Shown one piece after another: positions 25,141-64,000 of a DNA stretch of 64,000 nt. The stretch covers positions 8,432,001 through 8,496,000 of the forward strand of contig CM114271.1 of the NCBI GenBank assembly GCA_050084515.1. Direction: 5' to 3'. Below the pieces are notes generated by a model, which saw only the letters and a program-made list of their open reading frames with translations, ran no database searches and was not told where the DNA came from. The translations under genes and the position numbers were made by a program. Each line of letters starts with the position of its first letter. Within the stretch, counting starts at the first letter, position 1. This DNA is from Blasia pusilla. Its lineage: Eukaryota.

Positions 25141-28100
25141 TTGATGAGGAGGTCCACCGCCACCTCCTCAGCAATCCCATGCACTGTCCAAGGGGCGTGC
25201 CCAATTTGAAGGAGTTTTTGCCCTAGCACGGTCAATTTCTCTATGGCAGGTGTCGACTCTTGAGAACTGAAACTCTGCCGTTTATCGACAAGATAAGTCA
25301 AGTGAAGAAGGGCATTTGTCCAGGTGGTCATTTCCCTATGCCTGCCCAAGGATGATGGAGTGTATTCCACATCCTTGTCTCCTCCCTCAGACGAACCAGG
25401 CGCCTCCCGCTTTCGCTTCTCCCAAGTGTGCTATCGGCTTGTTGGAGTCTCCGTTACCTCATACTCCACAGGATTTTTCTTTGACAAGGACCTCGTCCAG
25501 CCCTCTTGCTCCTCTTGCCTGGACAACTCCGCCTCTCACCTTGAAGACTCAGCCTCTTTTCTCGAAGACTCAGCCTCGGAATTCCTCGATCCCCTTGCCT
25601 TGGCTTTCAAAACCGCTGTGGATTTATCTTTGGCGGTGACGACCTTTGCCACCAACTCCGCTGTCTCGAGGGCTTGCTCCTCTGAAGTTCAGAATGTCGT
25701 CCCCACCAACGATAACTGCATAATACACCACGCATAGATTTTTGTTTGTAATGTCCTCTGGGTTGTTGAAGTCCAACCAGATTGGAAAATTTATAACCTC
25801 CCAGTCGGACATGCCCTGTCCCATCTCCATGTTGTACATGGAGAATCCCTCCCCATCAAGCGGAGAAGCCCATAGTTTGGAGGCTGCCGGAAATTTTCCC
25901 CTGGTACCTGCATTCACACAATTGATGAGGTATCTGTACACCATCCGCTGGGTAGCTCTTTGTCGAGATGACTCGGCCGCCTAGTCCTAAAGATCCCGCT
26001 TCTTCTTTGCAAAATCCTATTTTATGGCGTCTATTTCCTCGTCCACATCTGCTTGAGGGAGGATGTGATTCTTGAACATCATCCGGAATCCTGTGTTTCT
26101 CGTTGGCTTATCTTTGATGTCATTAACCATAGTTCAAAATCTTCTGCAGCCTCTAGGTTTGCTTCCTCTGGAACTGGCTAATCTTCTTCAGCTCCGCTTA
26201 TAGACCCACGATCATGGATTTCCCAAGAAGGTGCAATGCGTCCTAGAATGACCATTCCCATAGCCAATGGGAGATCACTGGATCTGAAACTCCCAAAGGA
26301 TGGTGTGCTGCCCGCTTCTGTGCCTCAGTGCCCTCGAGACTGATTTTCATCAGTCGGATTCGACTAAACTCATATATGCCAGACATCACAAACCTATGCA
26401 CGCGATCGAGAGACACTTTCTCTCCAATCCGACCCTATGGATCTTTGTCTCTCTTCCGTTGGCGCTTGATTATCGCCTTGAGCTCCTTGTAAAACTCCGG
26501 GCCAAGTTTGGGGTTGAGAATTGCAATGTAACGCTGCATCTTGCTTGTAGTGTACTTTGTAGCTGCAGATACAACAGACTGAATAAATTTTGCTCGTTCT
26601 GACGCGAACACGTTCTCCCTTTACTCCAGTTCCAACGTAGCACTCTTCTTGTCGGCCTTGATCTTGGACCAACAGAGGATTGTGACGGGTGCATCTTGGG
26701 AAATGAAGGTATTTGCCTAGGTCTTCTTCTATATTTAAGCTCCCTTCACCATCATCTCATCAACCAGATTGTCACCCATGAATCCCTTGTAGTCTGCCGC
26801 ATTGTAAGCACCTTTTTGACCCTGTCGCAATCGAGGATCCAATGGTGGGCAACGTTCCCCTCGGATACAATCCTGCAAATCCAAACACAAGGTAAGAATA
26901 GTGCAACCTATCGGGTTTCGTCTAGTTCCACCAGAGAATCATGAATAGAGAGTGCAACCCGTCCGATCTCCGATGGGTTGCAACACTCTTGAGAGATTTC
27001 AAGGATGCCCAATCCGTCGGAGTCCGACGGATTGCAACAATCGCTTTGACTTGTAGTCTCTTCGATGAAAAATGTATTTTCTGCTACCTGTTGACTCTGA
27101 TGGGTCGTAATTTTGTCAACCCATCGGGATCCAAAAGGTAACACATAGATAAGTGTTGCTACCCGTCGGAGTCCAACGGGTTGTAGAAAGTACATATTTT
27201 GTCGAAGAGAGTGCAAGTGAAAGCGATTGTTGCAACCCGTCGGACTCAGAAGGATTGGGCATCCTTGAAATATCCTGAGAGTGTTGCAACCCATCGGAAT
27301 CTGACGGGTTGCACTCACTCTTTGTGACTCTCTGGTACAATCGGAGAATGCTCCTATTCCTTGGTTCCAACATGTCGGACTCCGACGGGTTGTAGAATGA
27401 CTTCCATTCCGAGACAGGTTTCCGGATAAAAACTGCCCATATCAACCCGTCGGAGTCCAACGGATTGCGCAATGGCCTTGTAAAGCTAGAATTGGACGCC
27501 TAAAAGAAAGCTCTTGGACTCCGACCACGTGCCTTGGGGAGAAAATGCAACCCGTCGGAGTCCAACGGGTTGCTTTCGGCCAAAAGTATCCAAAAAATAG
27601 GGGACAGTCGAGCAACTCGTTGGAGTCCAACAAGTTGCTTTTAGGCATCCGATGATTTCTTACCCCTCATTGTGCAACTCGTTGGAGTTCGACGGATTGC
27701 AAAACAAATAAGTCATGAAGTCACTTTTCAACCCGTTGATGTTTGATTGGTTTCAATATGCCTGGTGTGCTTGGCCACCAGGCAACTCATTGGACTCCGA
27801 CGGTTTGCTTGACTATGACCTTGACCTCAAAGAGGATGGGGGCAAGAGACTCAAATCATTCTTGCCCATCTTCAAGCTTTCCAATTATGCAACCCGTCGG
27901 ACTCCGACGGGTTGAAGCAATCAATCATAAGGATGAGGAAACTTACGTATTCATTGCATGCATTGCCATTTCCACCGTTGCCGTGTGATGAGGAAATTGA
28001 TGGAGCACAACTGCCCTCACGCAAACTGCGTCCACGCCATGTACCTGTGATTCCCATCCCAGATGAAGAAGTAGAGGTTCCACATCCAGCTAAATTGGGT

Positions 28101-29071
28101 TCCTTCAATCGCTCTTCTGAACTCCTGGTCTCTCATCCTCCAGATTGTTTCCAACCCCTCCAAGTCCTCTTCTGTTACCAGAGCTTGGGTTCCATATTCA
28201 TCGTAAGGCTGAACATACAACGGAGGGAAGCTGTCAACGTAGGATGCCGTCGCTGCCAATTGTTTCAGCTTTGCAATGTCCTCCTCCGATTGAATTTTAC
28301 GGACGTACTCCATTGTCCGCAGTCGACAGAGTGGAATTCTTGGGGACTTTTGGCCCTCCATCAGTGCCATCTTCTTAACAATTGGCCACAATGGGGACAA
28401 AGTCAATAAAATACTATGTTTTTCCAATGTATTATATAATGAGCTTTCACATAACCCGAATTCTTCTTACCCGCTCAAAGATTGGGTCAGTGCCCAAGCG
28501 TGCCAGCTGCTCTGGGACAAGAGCTCGCAAGTCCATAGGAAACTCATCGATCTGATGACTCTTCTCCTGCTTCTTCAGAGATATCCACCATTTCCACACT
28601 TGCTCTCCTCATGACCTCATCGTCCGTCACTTGAACTTCGGCCGTTTCCTCAGTCAATTTTAGATTCATGGTATCCCCAGACCTCATCAGAGACATTTCC
28701 TGCATTTCAACACTATTTGTTGGACATGCAGGGTTTTCTTCAATGACGCTTGCTTTTTCTCTTCGAGCTTTTTCCAGTTTTGCTTTCCTGATGGAGGCAT
28801 CGAGACGCTTCTTCTCGCGTTTCTCGTTTGTGACTATTTTCTTCAAGGCCTTTGATGCATAAGCCTTGGCGTTTTGCTTTGCGAGCTCCTCCAGAGCAAG
28901 TTTTGCCCGAATCTCCTGCCTGTGCATATCTGCTTCCCTTTCACGCTCCTCTATTTCTTGTTGCCTTATCTCATTTGCCGAGCGAGGACCAAGAGATGGT
29001 GACGCAAGACTCTTGATGGACTTGGGAGTGATGCTCCCTACCTTCGTTGCTTGTGTTTTATTCCTCGTCAT
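25141..29071 (-). pseudogene. Spliced accessory gene with ParB/Sulfiredoxin-like domain (copy 1)
   Basis: Exon 1 29071-28471 (coiled-coil); exon 2 about 28383-27947 (RIPLCRL...FFIWDGNHRYMAW); GT-AG intron 27946-26873; exon 3 runs to the truncation at about 25141. Confidence 0.75.
26880..27915. repeat. Intronic array of 27-bp palindromes
   Basis: Many copies of GCAACCCGTCGGA-N-TCCGACGGGTTGC; a perfect 25-bp core lies at 27890-27914. Confidence 0.95.
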
Positions 29072-29384
29072 AGTGCACGTTGGGTCAGTTCTTCCTCCTT
29101 GATAGTGTTATTTGCTCCTGTGCACAACAGATCCCTCGAAGCTTCGATGGAGTGCCTAAACCTAACTCTCCAAGCGTTGTGTGGTGAAGCGAAGTGACCT
29201 TCAAGCGGATGGGCTTGCCGAAATCGAACCCTCGAAGCATCAGGTTCAGGTGTTGGATCATCGTTACCTTCCAGCAAAGGGGTCAATGTAACCAACTTGG
29301 CTAGCAGAGAAGATAACCTCATCTGTTGGGAGGAAGAGCACCACAAATCACGAAATGAAAAAGGGAAATAAGAGAAATCTCAGC

Positions 29385-29421
29385 CTTTTATACTTTTCGA
29401 GCCGTTGAGCTGACCGTTGAG
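29385..29421 (-). promoter_or_regulatory. TATA box plus two tandem CAACGG (MSA-like) motifs upstream of the ParB-like gene
   Basis: Minus strand reads ctcaacggtcagctcaacggctcgaaaagtataaaag, conserved with 60430-60466. Confidence 0.55.
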
Positions 29422-29509
29422 TCATTGGAACCATTGTACCAATAGCGACGTTGGCCAATATGGAACTTTGCACATGGGAAATGTGCAACCAGTCCCCCTC
29501 ATCAGACGT

Positions 29510-30220
29510 GCAACCCGTTGGAGACCGACGGGTTGCACGCTTCCCTCATCTTAGGGAAACAAGGCGAGGTACCCGGGCAACCCGTTGGTCTCTGACGGGT
29601 TGCACGCTTCCCTTGTCTTGAGGTAACAAGGCGAGGTACCCATGCAACCCGTCGGAGACCGATGGGTTGCATGCTTCCCTCATCCTTGGGTAACAAGGCG
29701 AGGTACCCGGGCAATCTGTTGCAGACCGACGGGTTGCCTGCTTCCCTCGTCCGGGGGTGACAAAGCATGGTCTTGAGGCAACCCGTCAACCTCCCACGGG
29801 TTACAAGGTCTACCATGGGTTGGACAGTTCCCACAATATGGAAAAATTGTGGCACGCTCTCCGAAAAACTCATCTACCCCTCACAATTTGCACGATTCAC
29901 TGGACAAGAGAAATTGACGCGAGATCCTCCCACAACTCGGTTACCTCCAAAAGGGAAAGCGAGGTGAGGTACCTTTTCAACCCGTCGCACTCCCCAACAG
30001 GTTTCTATAGGAAATCCATGCAAGGTCTCGTGGATCTCGACTCCAATCAGACAGGTCACACAGGCAGGGGGTACCGACTGACAACTACGTTCAAGCTAAC
30101 GGACTGCGACGGGTTGCAAGTTGCACTCGGACTCCAACAGAAGATGGTACTCCGTGGCTTTGCAACCCATGTGTATGAGTCCCAAAATTTGCAACCCGTC
30201 GGACTCCGACAGATTGCAAC
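29510..30220. repeat. Intergenic palindrome array with a 67-bp tandem unit
   Basis: Palindrome starts at 29510, 29577, 29644, 29711 and 29778, with scattered further copies to about 30220. Confidence 0.92.
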
Positions 30221-30856
30221 AAGATTGAATCCATTGCGTTAGACAATCTCGCCTACCAAACAACATCTTGTCAGTCAAATTCTCTCAGGAGAATAACGGT
30301 CACTATTCACTATAAACATTCTCATTCTCATTCTCATTCCCATTCCCATTCTTATTCTTATTCTCATTATCCACCCGGTGGAATCATCTGGGAATGGATA
30401 ATTATGTAAAACTCACTTGTGACAGTCATCTAGCGGCCCTTCTTCAATCTGAAATAATTCAACCGCAAGCTCGTGAGTCTTACATACCGGTGGAGGAAAA
30501 TTTCCTTTCACTGCGATTTCTTCTTCAAATTGGAACAATATTTGTTTCTAAGGATGTTAGGGTAGACGGTATGTAGGATGTTGTAGGTGAGATAGTCAAG
30601 CCAGTGATAACAGATTGTAAAGTATGAAATCTCCTACCTCTAAAAAATGGTCAATACAGAGTTTATGGCTTGCCTCTGAATTCCTCTGTTTCCCAAGTAG
30701 ACGGTCCAAAATTTCCTAGTGCACCGAGCACTACGTTTGCCACCCCCACCTTTGTAGATCCCGCATCGACTCCAACTTCACACGTTTGTAACAATGTTGT
30801 ACTTCATGAAGACATTCCGGATGTCGTCAATCTTAGTGGATCTGTCGGACACCAAT

Positions 30857-35540: not shown

Positions 35541-35583
35541 AAAGGTATCATGACAGATTGGGTGAGGTCTGCGTTTGTCATCC

Positions 35584-39641: not shown

Positions 39642-39661
39642 GATCCCCGACAGCGGCGCCA
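39642..39661 (-). promoter_or_regulatory. Primer binding site, tRNA-Asp type
   Basis: TGGCGCCGCTGTCGGGGATC, close to the Athila-type TGGCGCCGTTGCCGGGGA; 17 nt from the LTR end. Confidence 0.8.
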
Positions 39662-39678
39662 AAAAGTCTTCGACTATA

Positions 39679-40836: not shown

Positions 40837-42387
40837 CCAACCGAGCCTTGTGTCTTCCTACTCGTTCCTCTTACGAGTATCAGGCAATAGTTTGATGTCA
40901 TCTCTGCCCTTTAAAATGTTCAAGCACATTTTTGTCGACAAGTTTCCGCCCCCGTACAATGGTAATTGCATTTTTGAATTGCCTGCCCTTGGTGGTCCTA
41001 CTCAAAAGAAAGATGGAGGACGCTTGAAGGATATGGACGGAAAGTCTGATTGTCATTGATGGTGCAGGCTTCAACGGACTAGTGCTTCAATTCCAGATGG
41101 TCCTTGGATTGTTTCTCGCCGCCAATGCGTTGGACCTTTACAGAATAGAAGTCCAGGTTGCCCATATCTAGAGCGCAATAGGCGAGTCAATACGTTGCAA
41201 TTCCCCCCAAAGAATGCAGAAACTCCATATGAGGTCTGTGCAACCATACCTCCAAGAGGCCATCGATGTCCTCATTGTCAAGCATCCCCTTTCTGCGTTG
41301 GAGCGTGTCCTGCATACATATTTTTCATTGTGCATGACTTCAATTCTACGTGCGAGTATACAAGGCTGTCAGTTCATGTTGGCTCCCACATTCATCCGGT
41401 TACTGGTGCAATTCAGAGACACATCAAGGAGGATGTAGCAAAGAAAGTGGCCGAGGTATATAGAAACTCTCTAGGATCAAAGCCCAGAGTGATCAAGTTA
41501 ACAATAACATCACAAATTTGTAAAAAACTGCTTGGAATCCCTGGGCGAGATCACGATTGCTAAGGAGAAACAACTCTGGGAAAATCTTGCATTTCTCGTT
41601 GATCCTAAATGCTTCCGGAACTTGTTGCGTCAAATATGGGTACTTGATGGAAAGACAGCCGAAATGGATGCCATTGCCAGAATCAAGGCCAACTCCATAT
41701 TTTCATTTATTCAGAGATGGCAGTTTATGGGCCAGGGAGGCGAAGGATCCAGGGCTTATGTCTTCAAAATGTCAACTATAGGGTCGTCAAGTGGCCTCGA
41801 TCTTATAGATCGAATGAGGGAAGGGGAAGATCTCTACGGCAACTGGGTAAGCTTTGATATTTGCTACAAAGTGCCGAATGGATGGTTGACCATGGGTGCT
41901 CACGTTTACGACCATGTGGAGAAGGGACTCAAAACTATATTTGTGTGTGAGGTAAAAGCAGAAGACGTTGGCAGTTTGGAGATGTGTTGGTTACTCTTAT
42001 TGAAGGTGGTAAAGGAAAAAAAAGAGGCCACCTCCGGAAATTTATGGATTCATGGCGGGCAATGCACAACCTGGATGGATTGCTATCAGGGAAGTGTTTT
42101 GGGATGGAGAGGTTCAACCAAAGAGGGAAAGGTCGGATGCTTTCCATTGGCAAGTGTCTGTGACCCGATACACCAAATCTTACATCAAGGAGAATAAGAG
42201 AACAGAGCATGTCACTCTACTCCAACGCTGTAAGGACAACAAAACCTTGAAACAGGCCATGGAGTGCCAAGAAGAACTTCATGGGTGGTGGAGGAAGCAT
42301 GCGATTGAGGGGAAGTATAAAGAGTTGTGCTCTTGGCTCAGTTGGTGGACTGTACGAATGAGACAATGGGGAAACATCTTGCGGCAG

Positions 42388-43398
42388 GTGAGTTCAATAC
42401 ATCGTCCTTTCGAGCTCATGCTGAGAATTTTTTGAAAAGTTGCAGCTCAAGATGAGAATCGTGGGAACTATAGGGATTTCAAACCGCAGAAACCAAGCAA
42501 CCTGTCGGAAACCGACATGTTGCATTAAGAATGTTTGTGCAACCTGTCAGAACTTGACTGGTTACATGAGTGTCACACCCGTCGGAGCGCAATAGGATGC
42601 ATGAGGAGTGTTTGTACATCCTCTCTGAACCTGATTGGTTGCATGAGTGTGCAACCCGTTGGCTCTCGACGGATTGCAAGTTGGATGTATACAAGGCCTG
42701 CAAATAGTTTGACCCGGATGGGTTGCAAGCTGCAAGGCTGTGAGTTAACTCGGTTTGCGACCCGTCGGATTCCAAAAAGTTGCGTCTGTTTGCAACCTGT
42801 CAAATTCCGACTAGTTGCGTCTATCTCCGACTCCTCGCATTTAGACAGGTTGCGGATGTCTCCAACTCCTCGCATCCAGACACGTTGCATCAGTGCAAGT
42901 TAACCGAAATCCGTCGAATTCTGATAAATTGCAAAAGTTCGTGTGTGGACACTTCTTGCAATCCAACAAAATCCGACAGGTTGCACAAGGATTTTCGAGA
43001 CCGGACCGGCCTGCTTCTTACAACCCTTCCGATTTCGATGGGTTTTAGAAGCAGGTTCCTGGGTGCTGGATTGTCGTAAGAGGTTCTTGGGACATTCCAG
43101 GGATGTCTCCAACTTGCAACCCGTTTCAAGTCGGAGGCTGGAAAGTCCATGTGTGATCCGTCAGATTCTGATGACTTGCACTTGGATCTTCCAGCCCGGA
43201 GTGGCCAAAGTTACTTGCAACCTGTCTGAATCCGATAGGTTGCACTAGGTGGTTCCTGGATGTTGCAACATATCGGAAACCGATGGGTTGCAGAGTCATT
43301 CATGGGATGCCTCCGACTTGCAACCCGTTTGGTTCCGACAGGTTGCTTTTTTCTTTGCTCAAAGAGCTATTTTTGTTCCCTTCTCATATTGCCGTCGT
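42388..43398. repeat. Transposase intron filled with degenerate palindromes
   Basis: GT donor at 42388; many CG-decayed GCAACCYGTCGG..CCGACRGGTTGC units; the acceptor region is deleted. Confidence 0.8.
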
Positions 43399-45005
43399 TG
43401 AACATTCATGAAAATACCCTCTATCCCAACACAAGTGGAGCAGAAAATGTTCATTCCTCTTGGAGGTCATCACAAGCATGCCAAAAAATTTCACTTGTGG
43501 AGGCATGCCAACAAGACCAGGCAAGAGAAATGCTACAATCTGCAGCACCCCTTATCTTCCTCACAAAAGGAATAAAAAAAGGAAAGGGGCCTTCGAATTA
43601 CGAGCTCAATATCAAGGCAGTTGTGAGATCTGGTGATGAGAAACTCTATGTGGAAGCCTTCAATCGGTGCGTAGCAGGAACTCCCCTTGAGCAAGATGTC
43701 CATATTGGTGGGGATATTTGTAGGCGTGTTTCAAGACGCCCCATACAGATGGTGGTTGAGCAGTCCGAGCGAGACTCGTGGAGACCAGATAAGTATCTTG
43801 ACTTCAGGCAAGTGAAGAGGCAACATCGAGGAACGAACCCAGTGATTGATTTGGATGAAGAAATTATGCCGCCCAGGTATTCGGAGACGACCACAGCCTG
43901 GATTCTGGGGACTCAAAACCTTTGATCGTTTCACGAGGACCGAGGATCAATTGAAGTACTTCTTATGCCCAAATGAATCCTGCGCTTTCTGAAAGTCTTA
44001 TCCAGCTGCAATTGGAGCTCCACTGAATACCCCCACAATTTGGCCCATTGCCGCACGTATGAATTGCACTCAAGACGAAGTGGACAATCTTACAAGTGCC
44101 CGCTTCAGACTCGTAGATGCAGGAAGTTTGGAGCATGTTCGTATTACAGAGACCTTTGCATTTTGTTTTCAACCCAAGATTGATGTCAACATGTATCCAG
44201 AGAAGGTGGATGATCTCAATCCACTATTTCTCTTTGAGTCTAGAAATGGGGTGAAGAGAAACAGAATGTGTAGGCCAACGGTGGAGAGAGCAAAGCGAAT
44301 CGCATTAGCTCGGGAGGCAAACATGAAAATCATCGCCACAAAAGATGCTCATAGTGGAAATTGAATAGGAAGGATGTATTGGGTCAGGAACAACATTGTA
44401 AATTCAAGTATCACAGGGGTGTATGTGGTGCACATCTGTTGCTTTCCCACATGTTCCGGTGATGACTTTGTCCAAAGAGATATAAGTGGGAAAAGGTATT
44501 TCCCTTGTAAGCACATGTACCATGTGTTGCTTGTAGTTTTAAGAGAGTCAAAGGTAGGAGTAGGAATCCACCAACCAATTCTGTCCCTCAAAGAAGTGCG
44601 AAGTATTTTAAACAAACCACTTTGAGGATGCAAAATGAGGTCTTAGATTATACTTTCATTTTCCAGAACCTTCATTTTGAGCTTGAACTCTATTCAGCCA
44701 AGGAAAAATGATAGATTTTTTCCAAACCTTGGATGGAAAATCTGATTTGTTCCACATTTATGATACCAATGATTTTTCAGTTTTTTAAATTTTGTGAAAA
44801 TTGCAACACGCCGGATTCAGACGGGTTGCCAAAATATGGAAGAGGAAAAAAAAATGTGTGGGAGTGCCTAAGCACTTAGAAGAAAAGTGCAAAAAAATTC
44901 ACTCAATAGGTTTCCTCTCTTCAATCCCACGGAAACTCTCTTCAAAAGAAAGTATCTCTTTGGGTTGAAGGTAGTCTCCTCTCTTCCTCTCCTCTTACCA
45001 CGCCT

Positions 45006-46850
45006 TGTCAGAATCCGACGAGTTGCAATATTTTTCTGGAAAATGTTCATCATGCAACCCATCTAAATACAACGGGTTGCTATTTGGTTCTGTAAAAAGT
45101 TCATCATGCAAGCCGTCACAATTCGACGGGTTGCTATTTTGTTCTCAAAAAAATTTATCATGCAACCCGTTGGAATCCAACGGGATGCTACTTTGTTCTT
45201 AAAAAAGTTCACCATGCAACACGTACCAATCCAACAATTTTTCCTGAAAAATTTCAATCGTCCAACCCGTCGGAACCCGACGGGTTGCGAGTTCCTTAAA
45301 GTGAGATAAGTTAATTTTGCAACTCATAGATGTGTAGCTGAAACTCCTCCTCTTGAGAAAGACGGCCACATTGGTGGGGATATTCGTGGACGTGTTTCGA
45401 GACGTCTCATACATATAGTAGTAGAGCAGTCTGAACGAGACTCCTCGAGACCTGATGAGTATATTGACTTCAGGAAAGTCAAGCGTCAACATTGCGGGAA
45501 GAATCCAGTGATTGATTTGATCGTTTGGATGATGAAATTACCCCGCCCAAGTATTCGGAAACACCGGACTGCTTCCAAATTTGAGTTGAAGTATCTTCTG
45601 CAAAATCAGTGAATGTTTTATTTCAAAATCCCTCTATTGTTGGAACTTCCCACCATACAGTGTCGGAGGTAGTTCAACAATATGGGATTGTGGTCATTGA
45701 GGTTGATTGCAACCTCAAGCAGTGGCATATTTCTTGAAGCAACCCAGGAAGTGCACCCACTTGCAGGGCAGGATCGGATGAGATTAGGAGAGCATAATCC
45801 ACTTTCCTGAATAAGAACTGTAGAAGGACAGGACGACCACTGCCAGGTTTTTGGGGGCTGAAAACCTTTGGCAGGTACGAGAATCGGGGATCAATTGAAG
45901 TACTTCTTTTGCCCTAAGGAATCGTGCACTTTCCAGAAGTCTTATCTAGTTGCCATTGGAGCTCCAAGTACCACTCATGAGGAAGTCAAAAATCTTACAA
46001 GTGTCAGTTTCAGACTCGTAGAGGGAGGGAGTTCGGAGCATGTTCGCATTACACAGAGTTTCACATTTCGGATTCAACCCAAGATTGATGTCAACATGTA
46101 CCCAAAGAAGGTGAATGATCTCAATCCACTATTTCAATTTGAGTCAAGAAATGGAGTGAAGAGAAATGAAATGTGTAGGCAAACGGTGGAAAGAGCAAAG
46201 CGAATCGCATAAGCTTGGGAGGCAAATATGGAAATCATCGCCACAAAAGACGTTCATAGTGGCAATGGAATAGGAAGGATGAGTTGGATTAGGAACAACA
46301 TTTTGAATTCAAGTGTGACAGGGGTGTATAAGATACACATCTATTGCTTTCCCACATGTTCCTATGATGACTTTGTCCAAAGAGAGACAACTAGGAAAAG
46401 ATATTTCCCTTGTAAGCACATGTACTATGTGTTGCTTGTAGTCTTAAGGGAGTTGAAGGTAGAAGTAGGAATCCACCAACCAATTTTGTCCCTCAAAGAA
46501 GTGCGAAAGTATTTTAAGTCCCTCAAAGTATTTTAAACAAATCACTTTGAGGATGCAAAATGAGGATTACATATGTATAGATTTTTTCCATATGGAAAAA
46601 GTGATTTGTTCCACATCTGTGATTCTAATGATTTTTCAGTTCTTTTTATTTTGTGCAACTTGCAACCCGTCAGATTCAAACGGGTTGCTAGTATGTGGAA
46701 GAGGAAAAAACATTTATGAGATGATTAAGCAAAGAGAACAAAAGTGCAAAAATATTCATAAAACAAATCTTCCTCTCTTTAACCCAACGGAAACTTTCTT
46801 CAAATGACATGAAACTCTCTTAAAAAAAAAACATCTCTTTGGGTTGAAGG
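45006..46850 (+). mobile_element. Fourth, partial copy of the MULE-type element (palindromes plus transposase 3' end with SWIM)
   Basis: 45868..46536 is homologous to 43940-44625 (FPTCSYDDF...FPCKHMYYV); cut at 46850 by the Copia LTR. Confidence 0.85.
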
Positions 46851-49800
46851 TGTATAAAACTGTTAAACAAGCATAACTGGTGGAAAACGACTCTCACACA
46901 CACATACCACCATGGAGAACAAAATTTGCAATGACAGAAATTGAGTGGAGGCTGATCCTCTTCTCAATTATATAGGGTATGTACAAGCAATCCTAACCCT
47001 ATCCTTAACCATAGTCTCAAGTTAGACTAATTGTGATTAACTAACCCTAGTTAAGATAATCTTGCTTAACTGACTAACCAAGATTAAGCTTCCCTACTTT
47101 GTGTGAATACCAAATATAGCAGTTCAAGTGTCTCATGAGCTTGACTGTAACTCAATCTTCGATACTCCCCCTCAAGCTCATATCATATCTCTAACGCCTA
47201 AATCCTTTGTAAACATCTCAAACTTATCTCTAAACAATTCCTTTGTAAAGATGTCAGCAATTTGCTGATCTGTACCTATATACATAAGATCAATTTCTCC
47301 TACAAGCACTTTCTCTGTGATAAAATGATAGTGCACCTCAAGATGCTTTGTACAAGCATGAAACACATGGTTATTAGCAAGCTTGATGCTACTAATATTG
47401 TCTGCATATCTTACACTAGGTCCTAAGTTACTAAAACCAATCTCAACAAGTAATCAATGAAGCCACACCGCCTCACATGCTGCATTGATTGCTCCTCTGG
47501 ACTCAGCCTCTGTTGAAGATAAAGCAACTATAGGTTCCTTTTTTGAAGCCCAACTTATAGTTGCGCTTTCCAAAGTAAATGAATAACCAGATGTGGAGTA
47601 TCGATCAGACACGCTTCCTGCCCAATCAGCATATGTGAATCCCTATAATTGAAAACTCCGAGAAGTTTCAAATTGAAGCCCGAATTGAATAGAGAAGTTC
47701 ACATACCGCATAATCCTTCTCACAACATCAAGGTGAGATTTTTGAGGTGCTTGCATAAAAAGGGTCACTAGGCCAACAGCAAAGCTCAAATCTGGTCAAG
47801 TTATAGTTAGATAGATCAAACTTCCAACCTTGTGCCTATACATATTAGAATCTGCGAGGAGCTCTCCTTCATCCACTCTTAGCTTCACCCTCTGGTCCAA
47901 CGGTGTAAAGATTGGCTTACAAGTTGTCATACCATATTTTTAAAGCATATGAAGAGCATATTGTCCTTGTAGTAACCACATGCTCTCTCCAACCTTGATA
48001 AACATAAACTCAATACCAAGGAAGTACTTGAGTTCTCCCAAGTCCTTCATATCAAATCCTGCTTGTAACTTAAGCTTGACTTGTTGTACAATTTCTTAAG
48101 TACTCCGAGTAATCAATAGATCGTCAACATACAACACAATGAGAACTATATGATCTTGTCCTCTCAAGACATATAACGAGGAGTCAAAATCACATACCCT
48201 AATACCCAACTCTTGTAGGACGTATGTAATCTTGCCATACCAAGCTCTTTGAGCTTGTTTAAGCCCGTATAGAGCTTTCTTCAACCTGCATACGCGAAAT
48301 GGAAACTTGAGATGCTCGTATCCAGGTGGTTGAGTAATATCTATCTCCTCGTATAGATCTCCATTCAAGAAGGCATTCTTGACGTCCATGTAATGTAATA
48401 TTCACTTCTTACTTACTGCAACTGCAACCACTATTCTCGTAGTCGCCATCTTTGCAATACGGCTAAATATTTCCTCATAATCGATACCATATTGTTGTGC
48501 ATAGCCCTTAGCCACCAATCTTGCTTTGTATCTGTTAATTGTACCATCTTAATTGCATTCGATTTTGTAAACCCATTTGCAACCAATAGCTTCCTTACCT
48601 GAAAGTATATCAACCAGCTCCCATGTTTGTTGATGTCTTAATGCAGCAAGCTCTTCCTCCATAGCTTCAATCCATTCGGCTTTACTCACAACTTTTACAA
48701 AACAACTCGGGTCCTGCTCTTGAAGGATAGTCATCATATATGCATGATGTGTCGCAAGGAAATCTTCATTTATGAATCTATGAACTGAATGTGTAACTCT
48801 ACTTGATCTACGAAGTTTTTGTTCAGAGGTAGATGCCTATGACACTTGACCCGAGCTCTGACTAGTGTCAACACATTGAATATGTACTCTTCCCGTCCAT
48901 GGACTCACAGATTTAATTGATCAATCTTCGACCTTTCCTAATCCTGCACTAGTACTTGGGGATGTTGAAGACAATGTATGTTGGTTTATAGTCATATTCT
49001 CCCCCTCAACAGACAAGTTTAGAGGTGGAATAGGCTCAGATGGAGCATACCATGACTTTAGCTCATCAAAGACAACATCCCGACTAATAATGAGTTGCCT
49101 AGAGGATGGAATGTAGCACTTATATCCCTTAGTTCCATCAGCATAGCCAATGAAGATACATCTTTCAGACTTAGGGACTAATTTCTAACGTCTCTCAGAA
49201 GGAACATGAGCATAATAGATAGAGCCAAATACTTTCAAGAAGGAAAAATCAGGTTTACTTCCTGTGAAGACTTTGAATGGAGTTTTATCATGAACTCTTG
49301 TTGTTGGAGTTCGGTTGATTAAGAAGAATGCACATGCTACAGCCTATGCCCAATACACCTAAGGCATGTTCTTCTCATTCAGCATAGCTCGTGCTGCTTC
49401 AGCAATATGTCAATTTTTCTTCTCACCCACTCCATTTTATTGTGGAGTGTAACGGCAAGTCACTTGACGTTGGATGCCATTCTAACGTAAATAGTCATCA
49501 AACTATGTTGAAAGATACTCTCCTCCTCCATCATAACGCAATTTTAGAATGTGTTGTCCAGTCTGCTTCTCTACTAGAACTCTGAATGTTTGGAACACTG
49601 AGAATACCTCTGACTTGGCTTTCAGAAAGTATACCCATATATATCTAGAGAAGTCATCAATAAATGAAACAAAGTACTGGAAACCACTAAGGCTATGTTG
49701 TGATGTTGTCCACACATCAATGGGGATCAACTCCAATATCTTGGATGCTCTTCTACCTTGCTTTGGAAAAGGAAATCTAGCTTGTTTTCCAAATTGGCAA

Positions 49801-55199: not shown

Positions 55200-55594
55200 G
55201 AGAGGAAGAGAGGAGAGAGGAGAGAGGAAGACAGGAGACAGGAAACTACCTTCAACCGAAATAGATACTTTTTTTTTAAGAGAGTTTCCGTTGGGTTGAA
55301 GAGAGGAAACTTTTTGTTTGAATTTGTTTGCACTTTTTTTTTCATATATTAAGCCGTCCCACAGTTTTTTTTTCCTCTTCCATATTTTGGCAACCCCTCT
55401 GAGTCCGACGAGTTGCAAATTGCACAAAATTTAAAAAACTGAAAAATCAGTGGAATCATAAGTGTGGAACCAATCACTTTTTCCATCTAAGGTCTGGAAA
55501 AAATCTATCATTTGCCCCGGGCTTAATAGAGTTCAAGCTCAAAGTGAAGGTTTAGGAAAAATAAAAGTACAATCTAAAACCTCATTTTGCATCC

Positions 55595-58500
55595 TCAAAG
55601 TGGTTTGTTTAAGATACTTCGCACTTCTTTGAGGGACAAAATTGGTTGGTGGATTCCTACTCCTACCTCCAACTCTCTTAAAACTACCAGCAACACATAC
55701 TACATGTGCTTACAAGGGAAATACCTTTTGCCACTTGTCTCTCTTTGGACAAAGTCATCACATGAACATGTGGGAAAGCAACAGATGTGCACCACATACA
55801 CCCCTGTGACACTTGAATTTCTGATGTTGTTCTGACCCAATACATCCTTCCTATTCCATTGCCACTCAAGACATCTTTCGTGGCGATGATCTCCATTTTT
55901 GCCTCCCGAGCTGATGCGATTCGCTTTGCTCTCTCCACCATTGGCCTACACATTTTGTTTCTCTTCACCCCATTTCTAGACTCAAACAGAAATAATGGAT
56001 TGAGATCATCCACCTTCTCTGGGTACATGTTGACATCAATCTTGGGTTGAATACGAAATGCAAAGGTCTCTGTAATGCGAACATGCTCCGAACTTCCCCC
56101 GTATACGAGTCTGAAACCGGCACTTGTAAGATTGTCCACTTCGTCTTGAGTGCAGTTCGTACCTGCGGCGATGGGCCAAATCGTGGGGGTATTCCCGGGA
56201 GCTCCAATGGCAGCCGAATTAGACTTTGGGAAAGCGTAAGATTCATTTGGGCAGAAGAAGTACTTCAATTGATCCCCGGTCCTCGTGAAACGATCAAAGG
56301 TTTTGAGTCCCCAAAACCCAAGCAGTGGTCGTCCAGTCCTTGTACAGTTCTTATTTAGGAAAGTGCTGCATGCTCTCCTAATGCCATCAGATCCTGCCCT
56401 GCAGGTGGGTCCACGTCCTTGGTTGCTCCGAGATATATGCCACCGTTTTAGGTTGCAATCCACCTCAATTACCGGAATCCCATATTGTTGAACCACCCCA
56501 GTGACAGGATGTTGGGAACTTCCAGCAACGGAGGGCTTTTCAAATAAAACATTCACTGATTTTGGAGAAGTAACTCCATCACAGATTTGGGACGGGTCCG
56601 GGGTCCCCAAATACCTGGGCGGCGTAATTTCCTCATCCAAATCAATCACCAGATTCGTTCCTCGATGCTGCCTCTTCACCTGCCTGAAGTCAAGATACTT
56701 ATCTAGTCTCCACGAGTCTCGCTCGGACTGCTCTATCACCATCTGTATGGGACGTCTTGAAACCCACCCACGAATATCCCCACCAATGTGTACGTCTTGC
56801 TCGAGTGGAGTTCCAGCTACGCACCGGTTGAAGGCTTCCACATACATTTTTTCATCACCAGATCTCACAACCGCCTTGACATAGAGGTCGTAGATCGACG
56901 GCCCCTTTCCTTTTATTATGCCTTTCGTGAGGAAGATATGGGATGCTGCAGACTGTAGCATTGCTCTTGCCTGGTCTTGTTGGCATGCCTCCACAAGTGA
57001 AATTCGTTGGCATGCTTGTGACGACCTCCAAGAGGAATGAACACTTTCTGCTCCACTTGTGTTGGGGCAGAGGGCATTTTCATGAATGTTCAATCCTTGC
57101 AACGACGGCAATGTTAGAAAGGAACGAAAATAACTCAGGAGTCAAAGAAATAAGGGACCTGTCGGAACCAGACGAGTTGCAGGCCGGAGGCATCCCATGA
57201 ACGACTTTGCGACCCGTCGGGTCCCGACGTGTTGTAACCTTAAACCCACCTACTGCAACCCGTCGGAACCCGACGGGTTGCAAGGCTGAGGCATCCCATG
57301 AACGACTCTGTGACCCGTCGGGTCCCGACGGGTTGCACACTCGCGTTGCACCAAAAATCTGGATGCAACCCGTCGGTTTCCGTCGGGTTGCACACTCGGG
57401 AAACCCGTCGCATCCGACAGCTTGCTTGGTTTCTTGGGTTTGAAATCCATATAGCTCCCACGCTTCTCACCCTGAGCTACAACTTTACAAAAAATTCTCA
57501 GCGTGAGCTTGACAAGACAAAATAGTGAACTCACCTGCCGCATGAAGTTTCCCCATTGTCTCATACGTACAGTCCACCAACTCAACCAAGAGCACAATTC
57601 TTTGTACTTCCCCTCAATCGCATGCTTCCTCCACCACCCATGAAGTTCTTCCTGGCATTCCATGGCCTGCTTCAAGGTTTTGCTGTCCTTGCAGCGTTGG
57701 AGTAGAGTGACATGCTCTGTCCTCTTATTCTTCTTGATGCAAGATTTGGTGTACCGGGTCACAGACTGTTGCCAATGGAAAGCATCCGACCTTTCCCTCT
57801 CCGGTTGAACCTCTCCACCCCAGAACACTTCCCAGATAGCAATCCACCCAGGTTGTGCATTGTCTCCCATGAACCCATAAATTTTCGGAGGTGGCCTTTT
57901 GTTTTCCTTCACCACATCCAATAAGAGTAACCAACACATCTTCAAACTGCCAACGTTTTCTGCCTTTACTTCACAGACAAATATAGTTTTGAGTCCCTTC
58001 TCCACATGGTCATAAACGTGAGCACCCATCGTCAACCATCCGTTCAGCACCCTGTAGCAAATATCAAAGCTTACCCAACTCCCGTAAAGATCTTCCCCTT
58101 CCCTCATTCGATCTATAAGATCGAGGCCACTCGACAGACCTATGGTTGATATTTTGAAGACATAGGCCCTGGAGCCCTCGCCTCCTTGGCCCATGAACTG
58201 CCATCTCTGAATGAATGGAAATCTGGAGTTGGCCTTGATTCTGGCGATGGCATCCATTTCGGCCGTCTTTCCATCCAGAACTCGTATTTGACGCAACAAA
58301 TTTCGGAAGCATTCAGGATCAGCGAGAAATGCGAGATTTTCCCAGAGTTGTTTCTCCTCAACCGCCGTGATCTTGCCCTGTCCAGGGATTCCAAGCAATT
58401 GTTCACAAATTTGTGATGCCGTTGTGAGCTTGATCACTCCGGGCTTTGAACCCGGAGAGTTTCTGTAGACCTCGGCTACTTTCTTCGCCACATCCTCCTT

Positions 58501-59546
58501 GATGTGTCTTGAATTGCATCGGTCACAGGATGAGTGTGGGAGCCAACATGAACTGCCAGCCTTGTATATTCTGACGTGGAGCCCAAGTCGTGGACAATGA
58601 AAAATATGTATGCAGGACACGCTCCAACGCAAAAGGGCGATGCCTGACAATGAGGACATCGATGGCCTCCCGGCGGTATGGTGGCACCCACCTCGTATGG
58701 AGTTTCTGCATTCTTGGGAGGGAATTACGACGTATTGACTCGCCCATTGCGCTCTGGATACGGGCATGCTCGACTTCTAGACTCCAAGGCTCCCACGCAT
58801 TGGCGGCGGGAGACAATCCAAGGACCATCTGGAATGGAAGCACTAGTCCATTGAAGCCTGCACCATCGATGACAATCAGACTTTCTGTCCATACCCTTTA
58901 GGCGTCCTCCATCCTTCTTTTGAGCAAGAGCAACAAGTGGAGGCAACTCAAAAATGCAATTACCATCGTACGTGGGCGGCAGCTCGTCGACAAGAATGTG
59001 CTTGAACATTTTCAAGGCCAGAGACAAAAGCAAACTTTTGCCTGATACTCGCAAGAGGAACGAGTAGGCGGACAAAGGGCCCGATTGGTGTCTGACAGAT
59101 CCATTGAGGTTGATAACATACGGAATCTCTTCAGCAAGAACAACATTGTTACGAGCGTGCGAAGTTGGAGTCGAAGCCGGATCTACAGAGCTTGAAGTTG
59201 CAAACGTAGAGCTCGGAGCACTAGGAAATTCTAGATCGTCTACTTGGGAAACAGACGAATTTAGGGGCAGGCCGTAAACTCTGTATTGACCATTTGCTAG
59301 AGGTAGGAGATTCCATACTTTACGGTCTGAGGTCACATGCTGGACCGTCTCATCTATTATGTCTTCCGTACCGTCCACCCTAACATCTTTGGATACAAAG
59401 ATGATTCCAATTTGGAGAAGAAATCGAACAGACAGAAAATTTTCATCCACTACTATGAAAGACTCACGAGTTTGGGGTTGAATGATTTCTGATTGAGGAA
59501 GGGCCTCCAGATGACTGCCACAAGGGAGCTTAACATAATTATCCAT
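55595..59546 (-). pseudogene. MULE-type transposase (copy 2), two exons
   Basis: Exon 1 59546-57535 has a Cys/His-rich N-terminus (CPHC..C..HTH), WVSFD, FMGD and DAFH. Intron 57534-57097 (acceptor AG mutated to AA). Exon 2 has NTSGAES and SWIM. A few frameshifts. Confidence 0.88.
57097..57534. repeat. Transposase intron with palindrome array
   Basis: For example tgcaacccgtcggaacccgacgggttgca near 57254; several copies between 57155 and 57425. Confidence 0.9.
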
Positions 59547-59819
59547 TCCAAGAAGATTCCAATAGGAGGAGACTGAGAATGAGAATGAGAATGAGAATGA
59601 GAATTTTTAATTTATAGTGAATAGGAAAACAGATATACTCTGTGATTTTCTTGACAAGATGAATTCGGTGGGTGACATTATCGACACAATGGATCCAGTC
59701 GTCAGAACACATTCAATTCTGTTGCAATATGTTACCGGATTTGGGAAGCAGAGGGTTGCGAATCACACTTGGAAACCGTTCGAGTCCTGGTAACTCAAAA
59801 ATTACCCGAAGCTAATCGA

Positions 59820-60372
59820 AGCCTGTAACCCGTCGGCTTCGGACGGGTTGCACGCTTCTGCCAAACATTGTCGAAGCGAGCAACCCGTCGCTCTCCGAGG
59901 AGTTGCTCAGATACCGCTCCTTCTTGCCCGAAGATGCCGGAGGCGTGCCAACCGTCTGTTCCCGAAGAGTTCTGCGGGTGCCTCACCTATTTTCCCAAAG
60001 ACGGCAAGGCGTGCAACCCGTCGCCCTCCAACGGGTTGCGCAAGGGCCTCGCCTTGTGGTGCTTACATGAAGTGTGCAGCCAGCCGGCCTCCGACGACTT
60101 GCACAGGAAGCCCGCATTCTTAACCCTTGACGAGGGAAGCGTGCAACCCAACGGTCTACGACGGATTGCCTGGGTACGTCCCATTCCCGTCCCAAACACG
60201 GCAGAGGCGCGCAACATGTCGGTCTCCCACGGGTTGCGCGGGTACCTCGCGTTCTTTTCCGAAGACAACGGAGGCGCCCAACCCGTCGGTCTCTGACGGG
60301 TTGCTCGCGCACATGGTGACGTTCCCAGGATGGCGGAGGCGGGCAACCTCTCGGACTCCGACGGGTTGCCAT
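59820..60372. repeat. Intergenic palindrome array, 63-68-bp period
   Basis: Unit starts at 59880, 59947, 60013, 60076, 60143, 60211, 60277 and 60343. Confidence 0.9.
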
Positions 60373-60429
60373 TTTTCACCTCCGGACTTCCGTAACCTCC
60401 GGCACGTCGCCGTCGAGAGGATGACGGGA

Positions 60430-60466
60430 CCCAACGGTCAGCCCAACGGCTAGAAAAGTATAAATA
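60430..60466 (+). promoter_or_regulatory. Two MSA-consensus motifs plus TATA box
   Basis: cccaacggtca (60430-60440) and cccaacggcta (60442-60452) both fit YCYAACGGYYA; tataaata at 60459. Confidence 0.6.
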
Positions 60467-60758
60467 GGGCAGAAATCGCTCATTTCCGGTTTCTCATTTT
60501 GTGATCTTCATTCCTCACTCTCCCGCGCAGTAGCTGATCAGATATGAAGGGGCATTTCACACGGCGACACATCGCGAGTCGATAGGAGGGAACGAGAGCG
60601 AGACGGTTCGACCGAACAAGAGCGAGACGGTTCGACTACACGATCACGAGACGATTCGAGCTACCCATCAAGGCGATTCGAGCTACCCATCTTGACATCA
60701 GCAAGGCGACTGATCAAGGGATTCGTCGTGGACATAGGTGGAGGCATTTCCAGAAAAA

Positions 60759-63700
60759 ATGACGAGGAAAAAATCACAAGCCAACAAGTCTTGGAGCTTC
60801 ACTCCGAAGTCCATTAGGACTCCTGCGTCAGCATCTCCTGGGCCTCATTCGGCGAATGAAATTAGGCAACAGGAAATCGAGGAGCGGGAAAGGGAAGCGG
60901 AGATGCACAACCAAGTTCTTCTTGCGAGACGTGTTCAAGAGGCGCTCGATAAACAGAACGCAGAGGCTGAGACGTCGCAGGCCTTGAAGAAAAGGATCGC
61001 CGACGAAAAGAGAGAAAAGAAGCGTATGGAAGCGTCAGTGAGGAGAGCAAAATTGGCTAAAGCGAGGAGGGAAAAAGCGATAGCCATTGACGATAGCCAT
61101 GCCCGTCCAACCAAAAGTTTTGAGATGCGGGAAATGTCCCCCATGAAGTCCAGGGACATAATCAACATAGTGGAAACGCCAGAATTTCAAATCGATGACA
61201 ACGAGGTCATGAGGACCGCCAGTGTGGAGATGGTGGACTTGACCGAAGAAGCCGGAGAGCGGTTATTCTCGACTCCAAGCCCGGCGGAGGACATCGACCT
61301 CTATCGGATCGACGAGTTCCCAGTCGATCTGCCAGCTTCTGTCTCAGACAAGTTGGCTAGTCAAGAAACCGACCCCATTTTCAAGCGGGTAAGAGAGGAT
61401 CTGGGTTTTTTGAATTATGTGAATTGCAATTTATTGGGAATTCAGTGTAGCTTATTGATCTTGTCCCGGTTCTGACAGGTGGTAAAGCAGATGGCACTCA
61501 TGGAGGGCCACAACGCCCCGAGGATTCCACTCTGCCGATTGCGGACAATGGAATATGTCCGCGAAATTCAGTTCGATGAGGACATCGTGAAGCTTAAACA
61601 ATCGGCGGCGACAACATCCTACGTCGACAGCTTTCCTCCCTTCTATGTTCAGCCTTATGACGAGCATGGAACCCAAGCTCTGGTTATGGAGGAGGACTTG
61701 GAAAAGCTCGACACATTTTGGAGGATGCGAGACCAGGATTTCAGAAGGCAAGTCGAGGGCACGGAATTTAGCTGGATGAGGAATCTGCATTTCTTCATCT
61801 GGGATGGAAATCACAGGTTCATGGCGTGGACCAAGTTTGCAGAGGAGCGGCCCAACTCATTGGAGGCACATTTTTGCGTGAAGGCAGTGGTCCTTCACCC
61901 ATTCCGTCATCACATGGCGACGGTGGAGATGGCAATGCATGCCATGAACACGTGAGTATCTTTAACACTTACGCAACTCGTCGGGACGGTTGTTGGGATG
62001 CTTTAACACTTACGCAACTCGTCGGACTCCGACGAGTTGCTCGATTGATGAATGGGTTAGGTTTTTTTTTGCTGAAAGCAACTCGTCGGAGTCCGACGGG
62101 TTGCTCGACTCGACGCTTTTTCGGATGTTTTTTTAAGAATGTAACTCGTCGGACTCCGACGAGTTGTTCGATTGACCACAGATTTAATTAGTTTTTGGCC
62201 CAAAGCAAACCGTCGGAGTCCGACGGGTTGCTCGACTCGCCGCCTTGTCAGGATGTTTTTTGAAGAATGCAACTCGTCGGACTTTGACGAGTTGTTCGAC
62301 TGACTGCAGATTTAGAATTTTTTTTGCCCAAAGCAACCCGTCGGAGTACGACGGGTTGCTTGCTTCGAAACTTTTTTTGGCCGAAATCAACCCGTCGGAG
62401 TCCGACGGGTTGCATTCGGAAGTTGGTTCCCCAAATTTCGCGTCAAATTGCAAGTTTCCATTCAATTGCGCAACCTGTCGGACTCCGATGCGTTGCTATG
62501 TTCACGTTAGTATGTTCAGTTGCACAACCCGTCGAAGTCCGACGGGTTGAAACCAGGCATTAGCAAATCTGAACGCAATCCGTCGGACTCCAACGGGTTG
62601 CATCATTTAGCTCGTTCCTAGAATCCGACCTTGAGTTGTGACGACTCCGACGGGTTGCACGAACCCATGTAATTTCCTGACGGGTTGAGTTTGGATGTGC
62701 AGGATTGTATCGGAGGGGAATGTCATCCACCACTAGATCCATGACTGCGATCGGGTGAGGAAGATGCTTACGACGCACCTGAGAGAGTATAGGGGGTTCT
62801 TGGGCGATGCCCTTGTCAATCAGATGCTTGCAAAGGGTGCTCAGATTAAAAAGAAAACTTGGGCAAATAAGTTTATTTCCCAAGATGCAACTGTAACCAT
62901 CCTTTGCTGGTTGAAGATACAGGCCGCGAAGAAGAGCGCTGCACTGGAGCTGGAGCGGAGGGAGAAGGTATTTGCGTCTGAGCGCGCGAAATTCATCCAA
63001 GCTGTAGTATCTGCAGCAACAAAATATACGGCGAGCAAGATGCAGCGATACATCAGCATTCTCAACCCCGAACTTGGTCCGGAGTCCTACAAGGAGCTGA
63101 AGGCGATTATCAAGCGCCAGCGGAAAAGGGATGAAGATCCGCATGGTCGGATTGGGGAGAAAGTGTCCTTGGATCGCGTGCATCGGTTTGCGTTGTTCGG
63201 CATAAGCGAAGAGGATCTGACTGATGAAAATCAGTCTCGAGGGCACAAAGGCCCAGAAGAGGGCGGCACACCATCCTCCGGGTGTGTCCAATCCAGTGAT
63301 CTCCCACTGGCTACGCGAATGGTCGTTCTGGGACGCGTTGCGGGTTATCGGGAAGTCCGTGCTGGACGGTCTACAAGCGGAGCTCAGAAGATTAGAGCCC
63401 ATCCCGGATGAAGCAAACCTTGAAAGTTCTGGAGATTTCGAGGTTTGGCTCGACGACATCCGGACAAGCCAACCAAAACCCAGGATTCAAGACAATGTTC
63501 AAGGTTTGCGTCCTCCCTCAGCGAGCTTGACGAAGAAGTAGAGGGGAACAAACGGGATCAAGCAAAGAAGAAGCGAGATCTGAGCAGACGGCCGATGCGT
63601 TCGACTAAAAGCGCCCAACGGATGGTCTTGGTACCTCGTCCGTGTAAGAATGCAGTGCGTGGGGAAAATTACCGGCAGCCTTGAAATTGTGGGCTTCGCC

Positions 63701-64000
63701 GCCCAATGCAGAGACATTCTCCATGTACGACATGGAGATGGGGCAGCACATGTCCGATTGATAGATGGAGAATTTCCCCATTTGGCTCGACTTCAACGAC
63801 CCTGAAGACATCACTGATAAGGATTTACGAGTGCTTCATGATGCAGTGGCCTCAGGACAAGACGACATCCCCAATTTCGTGCAGCTTGAAGACTTCTTCG
63901 GAGGAGATGCAGAAGAGCAGGCCCACGAGACAGCTGAGTTGGCTTCCAAGGTCCGCACAACCAAAGACAAATCCACAGCGGGTCTCAAAGGCAACGCGAG
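60759..64000 (+). pseudogene. Spliced accessory gene with ParB/Sulfiredoxin-like domain (copy 2; 3' end outside the window)
   Basis: Exon 1 60759-61388; GT-AG intron 61389-61478 (phase 0); exon 2 61479-61951 (RIPLCRL..VR...FFIWDGNHRFMAW...AMHAMN); intron 61952-62702 (phase 2, restores the frame); exon 3 from 62703 with stops and frameshifts. Confidence 0.8.
61970..62660. repeat. Intronic palindrome array, 63-64-bp period
   Basis: Unit starts at 62014, 62078, 62141, 62205, 62269 and 62333; a perfect core lies at 62388-62412. Confidence 0.95.

Follow-up and report, generated by a model that had tools for sequence, protein, structure and literature searches.

What keeps a long inverted repeat recurring in introns, between genes and near the end of a transposable element whose other non-coding sequence changes from copy to copy? 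The question is raised by a 64,000-nt stretch of the Blasia pusilla genome (assembly GCA_050084515.1, contig CM114271.1, positions 8,432,001 to 8,496,000 of the forward strand; hereafter the window, in whose own numbering all coordinates are given), in which self-comparison reveals at least four copies (A to D) of one DNA transposon, each with two divergently placed genes, where the first-pass annotation of the window had implied a single element. The interpretation that we favour, with a confidence stopping a little short of even, is that this two-gene element of about 10 kb carries a self-recognition module, for which the 27-bp inverted repeat serves as docking site in cis, and that the repeat is read by an element-encoded dimer, likeliest the product of gene 2.

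The palindrome and its placement

The inverted repeat has the form GCAACCCGTCGG-(A)N(T)-CCGACGGGTTGC. Searched as a pattern with 13-nt arms and at most 3 mismatches, it is found 30 times in the window against 0.00 matches expected from 100 dinucleotide shuffles; when up to 6 mismatches in 26 positions are allowed, 67 full sites are recovered against none in 50 shuffles, and half-sites with at most 2 mismatches number 112. The first-pass annotation had spoken of dozens of copies, which both counts confirm. The 67 sites fall into twelve groups, i.e., nine clusters and three single sites close to the visible element ends, and their geometry is nearly invariant: of 45 pairs of arms, 43 have a gap of 3 nt. 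The unit that is strongly kept is a pair of 12-nt arms: among the 43 sites picked by these arms alone, position 14 is free, position 13 is A in 30 and position 15 is T in 35. The free central nucleotide proposed earlier is retained, and the 13-bp arms proposed with it are better described as 12 nt plus an inner position that is mostly A on the left and mostly T on the right. Tandem Repeats Finder detects periods of 67/134 bp (29510-29787), 54/108 bp (45007-45235) and 64/128 bp (62014-62360).

All 67 sites lie in non-coding DNA of the four copies of the transposon. No site occurs in the element exons (about 14.7 kb scanned) and none in about 40.4 kb of other window sequence, long terminal repeat (LTR) and long interspersed nuclear element (LINE)-like retroelements included, so that the confinement described by the first-pass annotation—both large introns, the intergenic region and the vicinity of the end, with none in exons or retroelements—holds for every site. 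Three sites of copy B, at 43217, 43265 and 43320, count as non-coding because the stretch homologous to the last gene 1 exon starts at 43365, downstream of them. That exons lack the site is to some extent expected, given the constraint that a 27-bp palindrome would place on the encoded protein. The large gene 2 intron of copy A (61952-62702) alone holds 10 of the 67 sites (62014-62601), together with partial sites at 61973 and 62646. The site announced near the element end is present as well, but as one palindrome only and at the one end that is visible: it lies about 165-190 bp inside that end, at 55390 in copy A, 44803 in copy B and 46662 in copy D. Read inward, the end common to copies A and B is GGAGAGG... 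in place of CACTA, its exact terminus being uncertain, and no inverted copy of it is found elsewhere in the window, which shows one end only per copy.

Searches outside the element gave no exact match to the palindrome in prokaryotic genome contigs, and in the literature the two 12-nt arms turned up only in two papers with unrelated titles (proline production in a bacterium; zebrafish transgenics). A central GANTC as a CcrM-type methylation target is not supported, being present in only 32 of the 67 sites and mostly missing from the intergenic and gene 1 intron arrays of copy A.

Palindromes and spacers across compartments and copies

Seven compartment groups contain 4 or more sites, and the consensus of each is 0-2 positions off the global one, mostly by C-to-T changes at CpG. 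The spacers are unrelated between compartments, and the arms nevertheless agree on a single consensus, both across three unrelated compartments and between copies with 33-41% difference at third codon positions; the earlier claim that spacers vary while the palindrome is kept is well supported at this level. The flanks of the sites carry almost no information across groups, a measure that is biased because the sites were chosen by their likeness to the consensus. A less biased measure is the sharing of 10-mers between non-homologous compartments of copies A and B, in which 65-95% of the covered bases lie in palindromes, although these make up 15-38% of the compartments concerned. Within arrays, the pairwise difference is 0.22 for palindromes (328/1492) and 0.48 for spacers (941/1944), the palindrome being the less diverged part in four of five arrays, and in the 128-bp higher-order repeat adjacent 64-bp units have their arms in common and hardly any spacer.

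The aligned copies A and B allow palindromes and spacers to be compared position by position, in alignments that are partly steered by the palindromes themselves and with sites defined in copy A only. In the gene 2 intron the identity is 0.78 in palindromes and 0.51 in spacers (0.82 and 0.51 without CpG sites), and in the intergenic region 0.67 and 0.51. In the palindromes themselves, mismatches are more frequent at CpG positions (107 of 536 cells) than at other positions (137 of 1206), a surplus that fits decay of methylated CpG. Much of the divergence between the two copies arose under purifying selection, since in gene 2 exon 2 the three codon positions differ by 0.09, 0.08 and 0.35, i.e., far more at the third position than at the first and second. 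The two copies also form a mosaic, with 84-91% identity towards gene 1, 73-83% towards gene 2 and a switch near the intergenic array, which suggests recombination between sub-lineages, perhaps at the arrays.

Several observations weigh against the docking-site interpretation. Between copies A and B, palindromes and spacers of the gene 1 intron are equally alike (0.64 and 0.66), as are those of the terminal DNA (0.85 and 0.88), and in the array of copy D the order is reversed, with a divergence of 0.32 in palindromes and 0.27 in spacers; picking sites by consensus likeness furthermore under-counts those that have been lost. Equal decay of palindromes and spacers after CpG correction, which the first-pass annotation had singled out as telling against selection, is thus not what the gene 2 intron shows, while on the gene 1 side the two do decay alike. 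We read the combined pattern as arms kept in active lineages, followed by neutral decay in dead copies.

The genes of the element and the candidate readers

The interval 61952-62702 has a GT donor at 61952-61953 (GTGAGT) and an AG acceptor at 62701-62702, and the homologous protein P0013 matches on both sides of it, through residues 174-321 at 61518-61949 and residues 322-492 at 62704-63204. Because this protein is contiguous across the gap, the interval is a true intron, as had been claimed from the window alone. Its position is old, because relatives either stop or continue at the same exon end: among 129 relatives of gene 2, 45 give alignments that reach the exon end, of which 26 stop at most 2 residues away—as expected of an open reading frame (ORF) caller meeting a phase-2 GTGAGT/GTAAGT donor—and 15 extend by 30 residues or more; of the latter, the annotated long relatives carry next-exon sequence. 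All 44 long annotated relatives are hypothetical proteins of the liverwort Riccia sorocarpa, with about 33-36% identity to the window exon. In copy A, gene 2 has in-frame stops at 62734-62736 (TAG, where relatives have Tyr) and at 61473-61475, the second of which may fall within a small intron, and in copy B it breaks off after WDGNHRYMAWTQFA (28017-28466). The element copies seen in the window are dead.

The AlphaFold2 model of the exon at 61476-61951 has a mean pLDDT (predicted local distance difference test) of 91.9. When this model is searched against the PDB, the top matches that carry a name are without exception ParB, Noc, KorB, sulfiredoxin or SbnI (best E 4e-3, probability 1.00, TM 0.43-0.46), and in a viral library the matches are mainly ParB-like, some of them annotated as methylases, alongside unnamed or otherwise-named rows. 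Residues G111, N112 and H113 are at least 90% conserved and belong to a G-x-x-R-type motif (WDGNHR) at a strand-to-helix turn. By modelled fold and motif together, the N-terminal domain of gene 2 belongs to the ParB/sulfiredoxin-like superfamily. In the full-length relative P0015, a helical region (residues 310-640) is confidently modelled, with no match made to ParB DNA-binding domains, and is followed by a C-terminal alpha/beta domain of lower confidence (pLDDT 60-70), whose best fold matches are M1.HpyAVI, CcrM and MboIIA (E 0.1-0.6). The profile PF01555 matches four of ten long relatives, all under its 26.7-bit cut-off (best 25.9 bits), and one of 16 in another set. Together these models and matches hint that the long liverwort relatives may end in an N6/N4-methylase-like domain. 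Its motif I looks intact. Its catalytic activity is uncertain because motif IV reads D-x-P-x-G, and neither a Pfam score above the cut-off nor a canonical motif IV places the long relatives among the beta-class N6/N4 methyltransferases. No ParA-like domain was found among the scanned ORFs of the element.

On the other side of the balance for gene 2, the Pfam family ParB_N (PF02195) gives no match even at E values up to 10, no PDB relative is found by phmmer or by profile searches with both alignments, and the E-values of the fold search are modest. Nor was any DNA-binding domain, helix-turn-helix or other, identified in the protein. The methylase-like domain is seen in relatives only, lying beyond the window end, and all six Riccia sorocarpa relatives inspected (P0156, P0138, P0135, P0152, P0015 and P0062) have the deviating motif IV instead of (D/S)PP(Y/F). 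Gene 2 itself is broken in both copy A and copy B.

Gene 1 has a single homolog, at 41% identity, and no Pfam match, the Mutator-like element (MULE) domain PF10551 included. Its language-model neighbours are MULE transposase clusters (0.95, 170-183 shared features), and inspection by eye suggests D-D-E-like motifs, of which the E motif would fall in the exon that follows the intron. On this evidence it may be a divergent MULE-like transposase. Its intron is placed at about 57096-57471, or up to 57534, a prediction from ORF layout, splice signals, the coding-type divergence of the last exon and presence in three copies; no longer relatives of gene 1 spanning the intron were found. Homology to the last exon begins only past the array, at 43365 in copy B and likewise at 5462 in copy C. 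A preprint on red-alga transposons cautions that such elements have been misfiled as MULEs (bioRxiv 10.1101/2025.02.11.637652).

Under the docking-site interpretation, a protein dimer encoded by the element would recognise the two 12-nt arms across the fixed 3-nt centre. The likeliest reader would be the gene 2 product, with its predicted ParB/sulfiredoxin-like N-terminus and long helical region, to which full-length relatives appear to add the C-terminal N6/N4-methylase-like domain. Arrays occupying all non-coding parts of the element—the two large introns, the region upstream of both divergent genes and the vicinity of the visible end—and growing and shrinking by tandem duplication would load many dimers, so that the protein could coat its own element and no other DNA. 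By analogy with the effect of VANC on VANDAL transposons, the coated element might then experience a change in chromatin or DNA marks, or in transcription. The earlier proposal of a selected binding site for a dimeric protein, parS-like or VANC-like, thus gains from the fixed gap, the kept arms, the ParB-like gene 2 and a VANDAL-like layout, and loses from the gene 1 side, where palindromes decay like their neighbours.

The sites might instead be read by the gene 1 transposase, through a cysteine-rich N-terminal region that is conserved with P0001, the arrays then being internal or subterminal transposase sites that aid synapsis or activation of the element's own genes. The Spm protein TnpA and the AtMu1 transposase are reportedly precedents for such roles. 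The MULE-like DDE character suggested by the language-model features and the single palindrome kept near the visible end of copies A, B and D speak for this possibility, as does a report of a transposase that activates cognate copies sequence-specifically (bioRxiv 10.64898/2026.08.24.746577). We nevertheless regard it as unlikely and rank the gene 2 product ahead of the transposase: most sites are located deep in the interior of the element, away from its ends, gene 1 yields no match to a DNA-binding family, and with one element end in the window no symmetry of end sites is visible. It is rather improbable that the palindrome is a selfish minisatellite or micro-repeat, spread by slippage and gene conversion in non-coding DNA and of no benefit to the element. 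Tandem arrays with periods of 54, 64/128 and 67/134 bp are what such a repeat would produce, copy number does vary (copy A has a gene 2 intron of 751 bp, copy B one of 1047 bp) and recent decay is neutral. Yet tandem duplication copies spacers too, and three compartments have only the arms in common; moreover, sub-lineages with nearly saturated neutral sites still have the same consensus, the spacing of the arms is fixed, and about 40 kb of neighbouring repeats contain no site.

A role in structure or for the host—as DNA cruciforms, as RNA hairpins or as 27-bp duplexes that neighbouring copies form within the intron RNA, feeding small-RNA silencing or binding a host factor—is improbable. The intron RNA does fold far better than shuffled sequence (-329 kcal/mol, z -12.2, none of 20 shuffles as good), which is a trivial consequence of the presence of the palindromes. 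Selection for hairpin pairing was rejected, compensatory changes showing no excess: double-arm changes that keep pairing number 13, against 11.0 +/- 2.9 in shuffles over all sites and 15.7 +/- 2.9 in shuffles within groups, and changes in a single arm number 204. A symmetric protein dimer is therefore favoured over a hairpin, because the arms are held to the consensus and pairing as such is not maintained. Sites also occur in intergenic DNA that looks untranscribed, the window has no Rfam match, and for a typical host factor half-sites of 12 nt would be long. In favour of the host, tandem repeats in VANDAL non-coding DNA are described as targets of RNA-directed DNA methylation in one study (PMC10398659).

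Going further than the docking-site interpretation, a true ParB-parS-like module, in which a nucleotide-switched clamp would load at the 27-bp palindromes, spread, and write a private N6-adenine or N4-cytosine mark shielding the element from 5-methylcytosine silencing, is a speculation to which we give very little credence. Such cassettes might also be the source of domesticated liverwort N4-cytosine methyltransferases (cf. the Marchantia DN4MT1 preprint).

Table 1. Coordinates of the transposon copies and of their palindromes in the window.
Feature	Coordinates	Strand	Content
Copy A	55227 to window end (64000)		
Copy A, gene 2 first exons	60759..61951	+	charged N-terminal part, then predicted ParB/sulfiredoxin-like domain (61476-61951, motif WDGNHR)
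Copy A, gene 2 large intron	61952..62702	+	10 palindromes (62014-62601), part in 64/128-bp tandem array
Copy A, gene 2 downstream exons	62703..64000	+	truncated by window edge
Copy A, intergenic region between divergent genes	59607..60758		8 palindromes (59825-60369), period ~63-68 bp
Copy A, gene 1 upstream exons	57472..59606	-	MULE-like DDE transposase core (putative) and N-terminal cysteine-rich region
Copy A, gene 1 predicted intron	57096..57471	-	donor alternatively 57534; 5 palindromes (57154-57391), half-sites up to 57425
Copy A, gene 1 last exon	55684..57095	-	
Copy A, terminal non-coding DNA	55227..55683		one palindrome (55390-55416); homology to B and D ends near 55227-55248
Copy B, overall	25594-44994	reversed	split by LTR retroelement at 30857-40836
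Copy B, left part	25594..30856	-	gene 2, intron with 11 palindromes (27009-27915); start of gene 1
Copy B, intergenic array	in 25594..30856		7 palindromes (29510-30217), 67-bp period
Copy B, right part	40837..44994	+	rest of gene 1, intron with 8 palindromes (42497-43346); terminal palindrome 44803-44829
Copy C, most diverged	5286..10100	-	gene 1 intron, 7 palindromes (5526-5843, 7082-7265; solo LTR between)
Copy C, intergenic region	in 5286..10100		4 palindromes (9473-9951)
Copy D, partial	44995..46851	+	54-bp array, 4 palindromes (45054-45288); most of gene 1 last exon
Copy D, terminal palindrome	46662-46688		

Other repeats interrupt or adjoin the copies. The retroelement inside gene 1 of copy B (30857-40836) has LTRs that are 96% identical, with TG...CA ends, a flanking 5-bp duplication (CCAAT/CCAAC) and integrase zinc-binding and core domains. 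A solo LTR (5892-7044), 82-83% like the LTRs of that element, sits in a degenerate palindrome and splits the gene 1 intron array of copy C. The 54-bp array (44995-45330) stands exactly at the junction, after the end of copy B and before the start of copy D, its origin from the intron of D or the end of B being ambiguous, and copy D is without about 300 bp of the gene 1 last exon beside it. A hexamer microsatellite (GAGAAT/CATTCT) borders the gene 1 ORF on its upstream side in copies A (59569-59604) and B (30317-30368), and two short tandem repeats (22-24 bp, 2-3 copies) at 60590-60691, just before the start of gene 2, are unrelated to the palindrome. By their translations only, minus-strand ORFs at 49503-49907 and 51487-53375 are copia-type integrase-like and LINE-type reverse transcriptase plus endonuclease-like.

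Comparison with known recognition systems

The bacterial pairs ParB-parS, Noc-NBS and KorB-OB resemble the present case in the predicted ParB/sulfiredoxin-like fold, the G-x-x-R-type motif (here within WDGNHR) and a palindromic site with fixed half-site spacing, and differ in that here no ParA-like partner, recognised helix-turn-helix or sequence-level family match was found among the scanned ORFs and searches, and that the setting is a eukaryotic transposon. The known sites of ParB, Noc and KorB measure 13-16 bp, as opposed to 27 bp here. Among plant transposons, the En/Spm regulator TnpA, itself encoded by the element, reads many motifs of about 12 nt, partly in inverted pairs and clustered subterminally. 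The likeness to our element lies in the many motifs of this length, partly inverted, and in an element-encoded reader, here a candidate; the difference is that most sites of the window are internal, in introns and between genes.

To our knowledge, self-recognition of a transposon through arrays of short motifs is established experimentally only for VANDAL. In Arabidopsis VANDAL elements, as two studies describe, VANC binds 8-9-nt motifs that are repeated in tandem within introns and within the intergenic and terminal non-coding DNA, and these motifs turn over quickly and differ between close families (PMC5735166, PMC10398659). The layout is the same here, i.e., short tandem motifs in the introns, intergenic region and terminal non-coding DNA of a multi-gene element. 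In contrast, VANC motifs of 8-9 nt are not reported as palindromes in PMC10398659, and they vary between close families, while the arms of the 27-bp palindrome are unchanged across diverged copies. The predicted ParB-like fold of gene 2 is a further difference, and the likeness to VANC is one of motif layout, by description.

The closest parallel comes from giant Plavaka transposons (EnSpm-type) of the red alga Bostrychia, whose accessory genes include PAG3, with a ParB-like N-terminus and a 2-oxoglutarate (2OG) oxygenase, and PAG2, with PF01555 and a SET domain. There, tandem inverted-repeat arrays adjoin PAG3 and are proposed by the authors to be its binding sites, and the PAG genes move between superfamilies, being also found in Mutator, Zisupton and Fanzor elements (bioRxiv 10.1101/2025.02.11.637652). 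Both systems set a ParB-like accessory gene beside tandem inverted-repeat arrays, the best HHpred match of PAG3 (7BNR_B) recurs in that chains of 7bnr are among the fold matches of gene 2, and the PF01555 methylase domain of the accessory cassette has a possible counterpart in the methylase-like domain of gene 2 relatives. They differ in that Plavaka joins the ParB-like domain to the 2OG oxygenase and keeps the methylase separately with SET, while gene 2 relatives appear to join ParB-like and methylase-like domains in one protein; in that the transposase here seems MULE-like and the visible end, whose terminus is uncertain, is not CACTA; and in that the arrays of the window also lie inside the introns of both genes. 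Fusions of a helix-turn-helix of the ParB kind with a methylase are described in chlorophytes and chytrids by Iyer et al. 2016, and our literature search found no land-plant report that links Mutator-like elements with ParB and methylases.

The combination of inverted-repeat arrays with an adjacent ParB-like accessory gene thus has one precedent, noted in red algae and as a proposal. The window adds a long palindrome of fixed geometry, kept across diverged copies and placed in the introns of both genes, beside a gene whose product is predicted to be ParB-like and whose relatives may be methylase-like; with the closest annotated relatives of gene 2 in a liverwort, this suggests that self-recognition cassettes reach well beyond red algae. 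For assays of direct binding and of DNA modification, it supplies a defined 27-mer together with two candidate proteins. What sets these arrays apart from known self-recognition arrays is that they are palindromic, placed in introns and paired with a putative ParB-like, methylase-like accessory gene.

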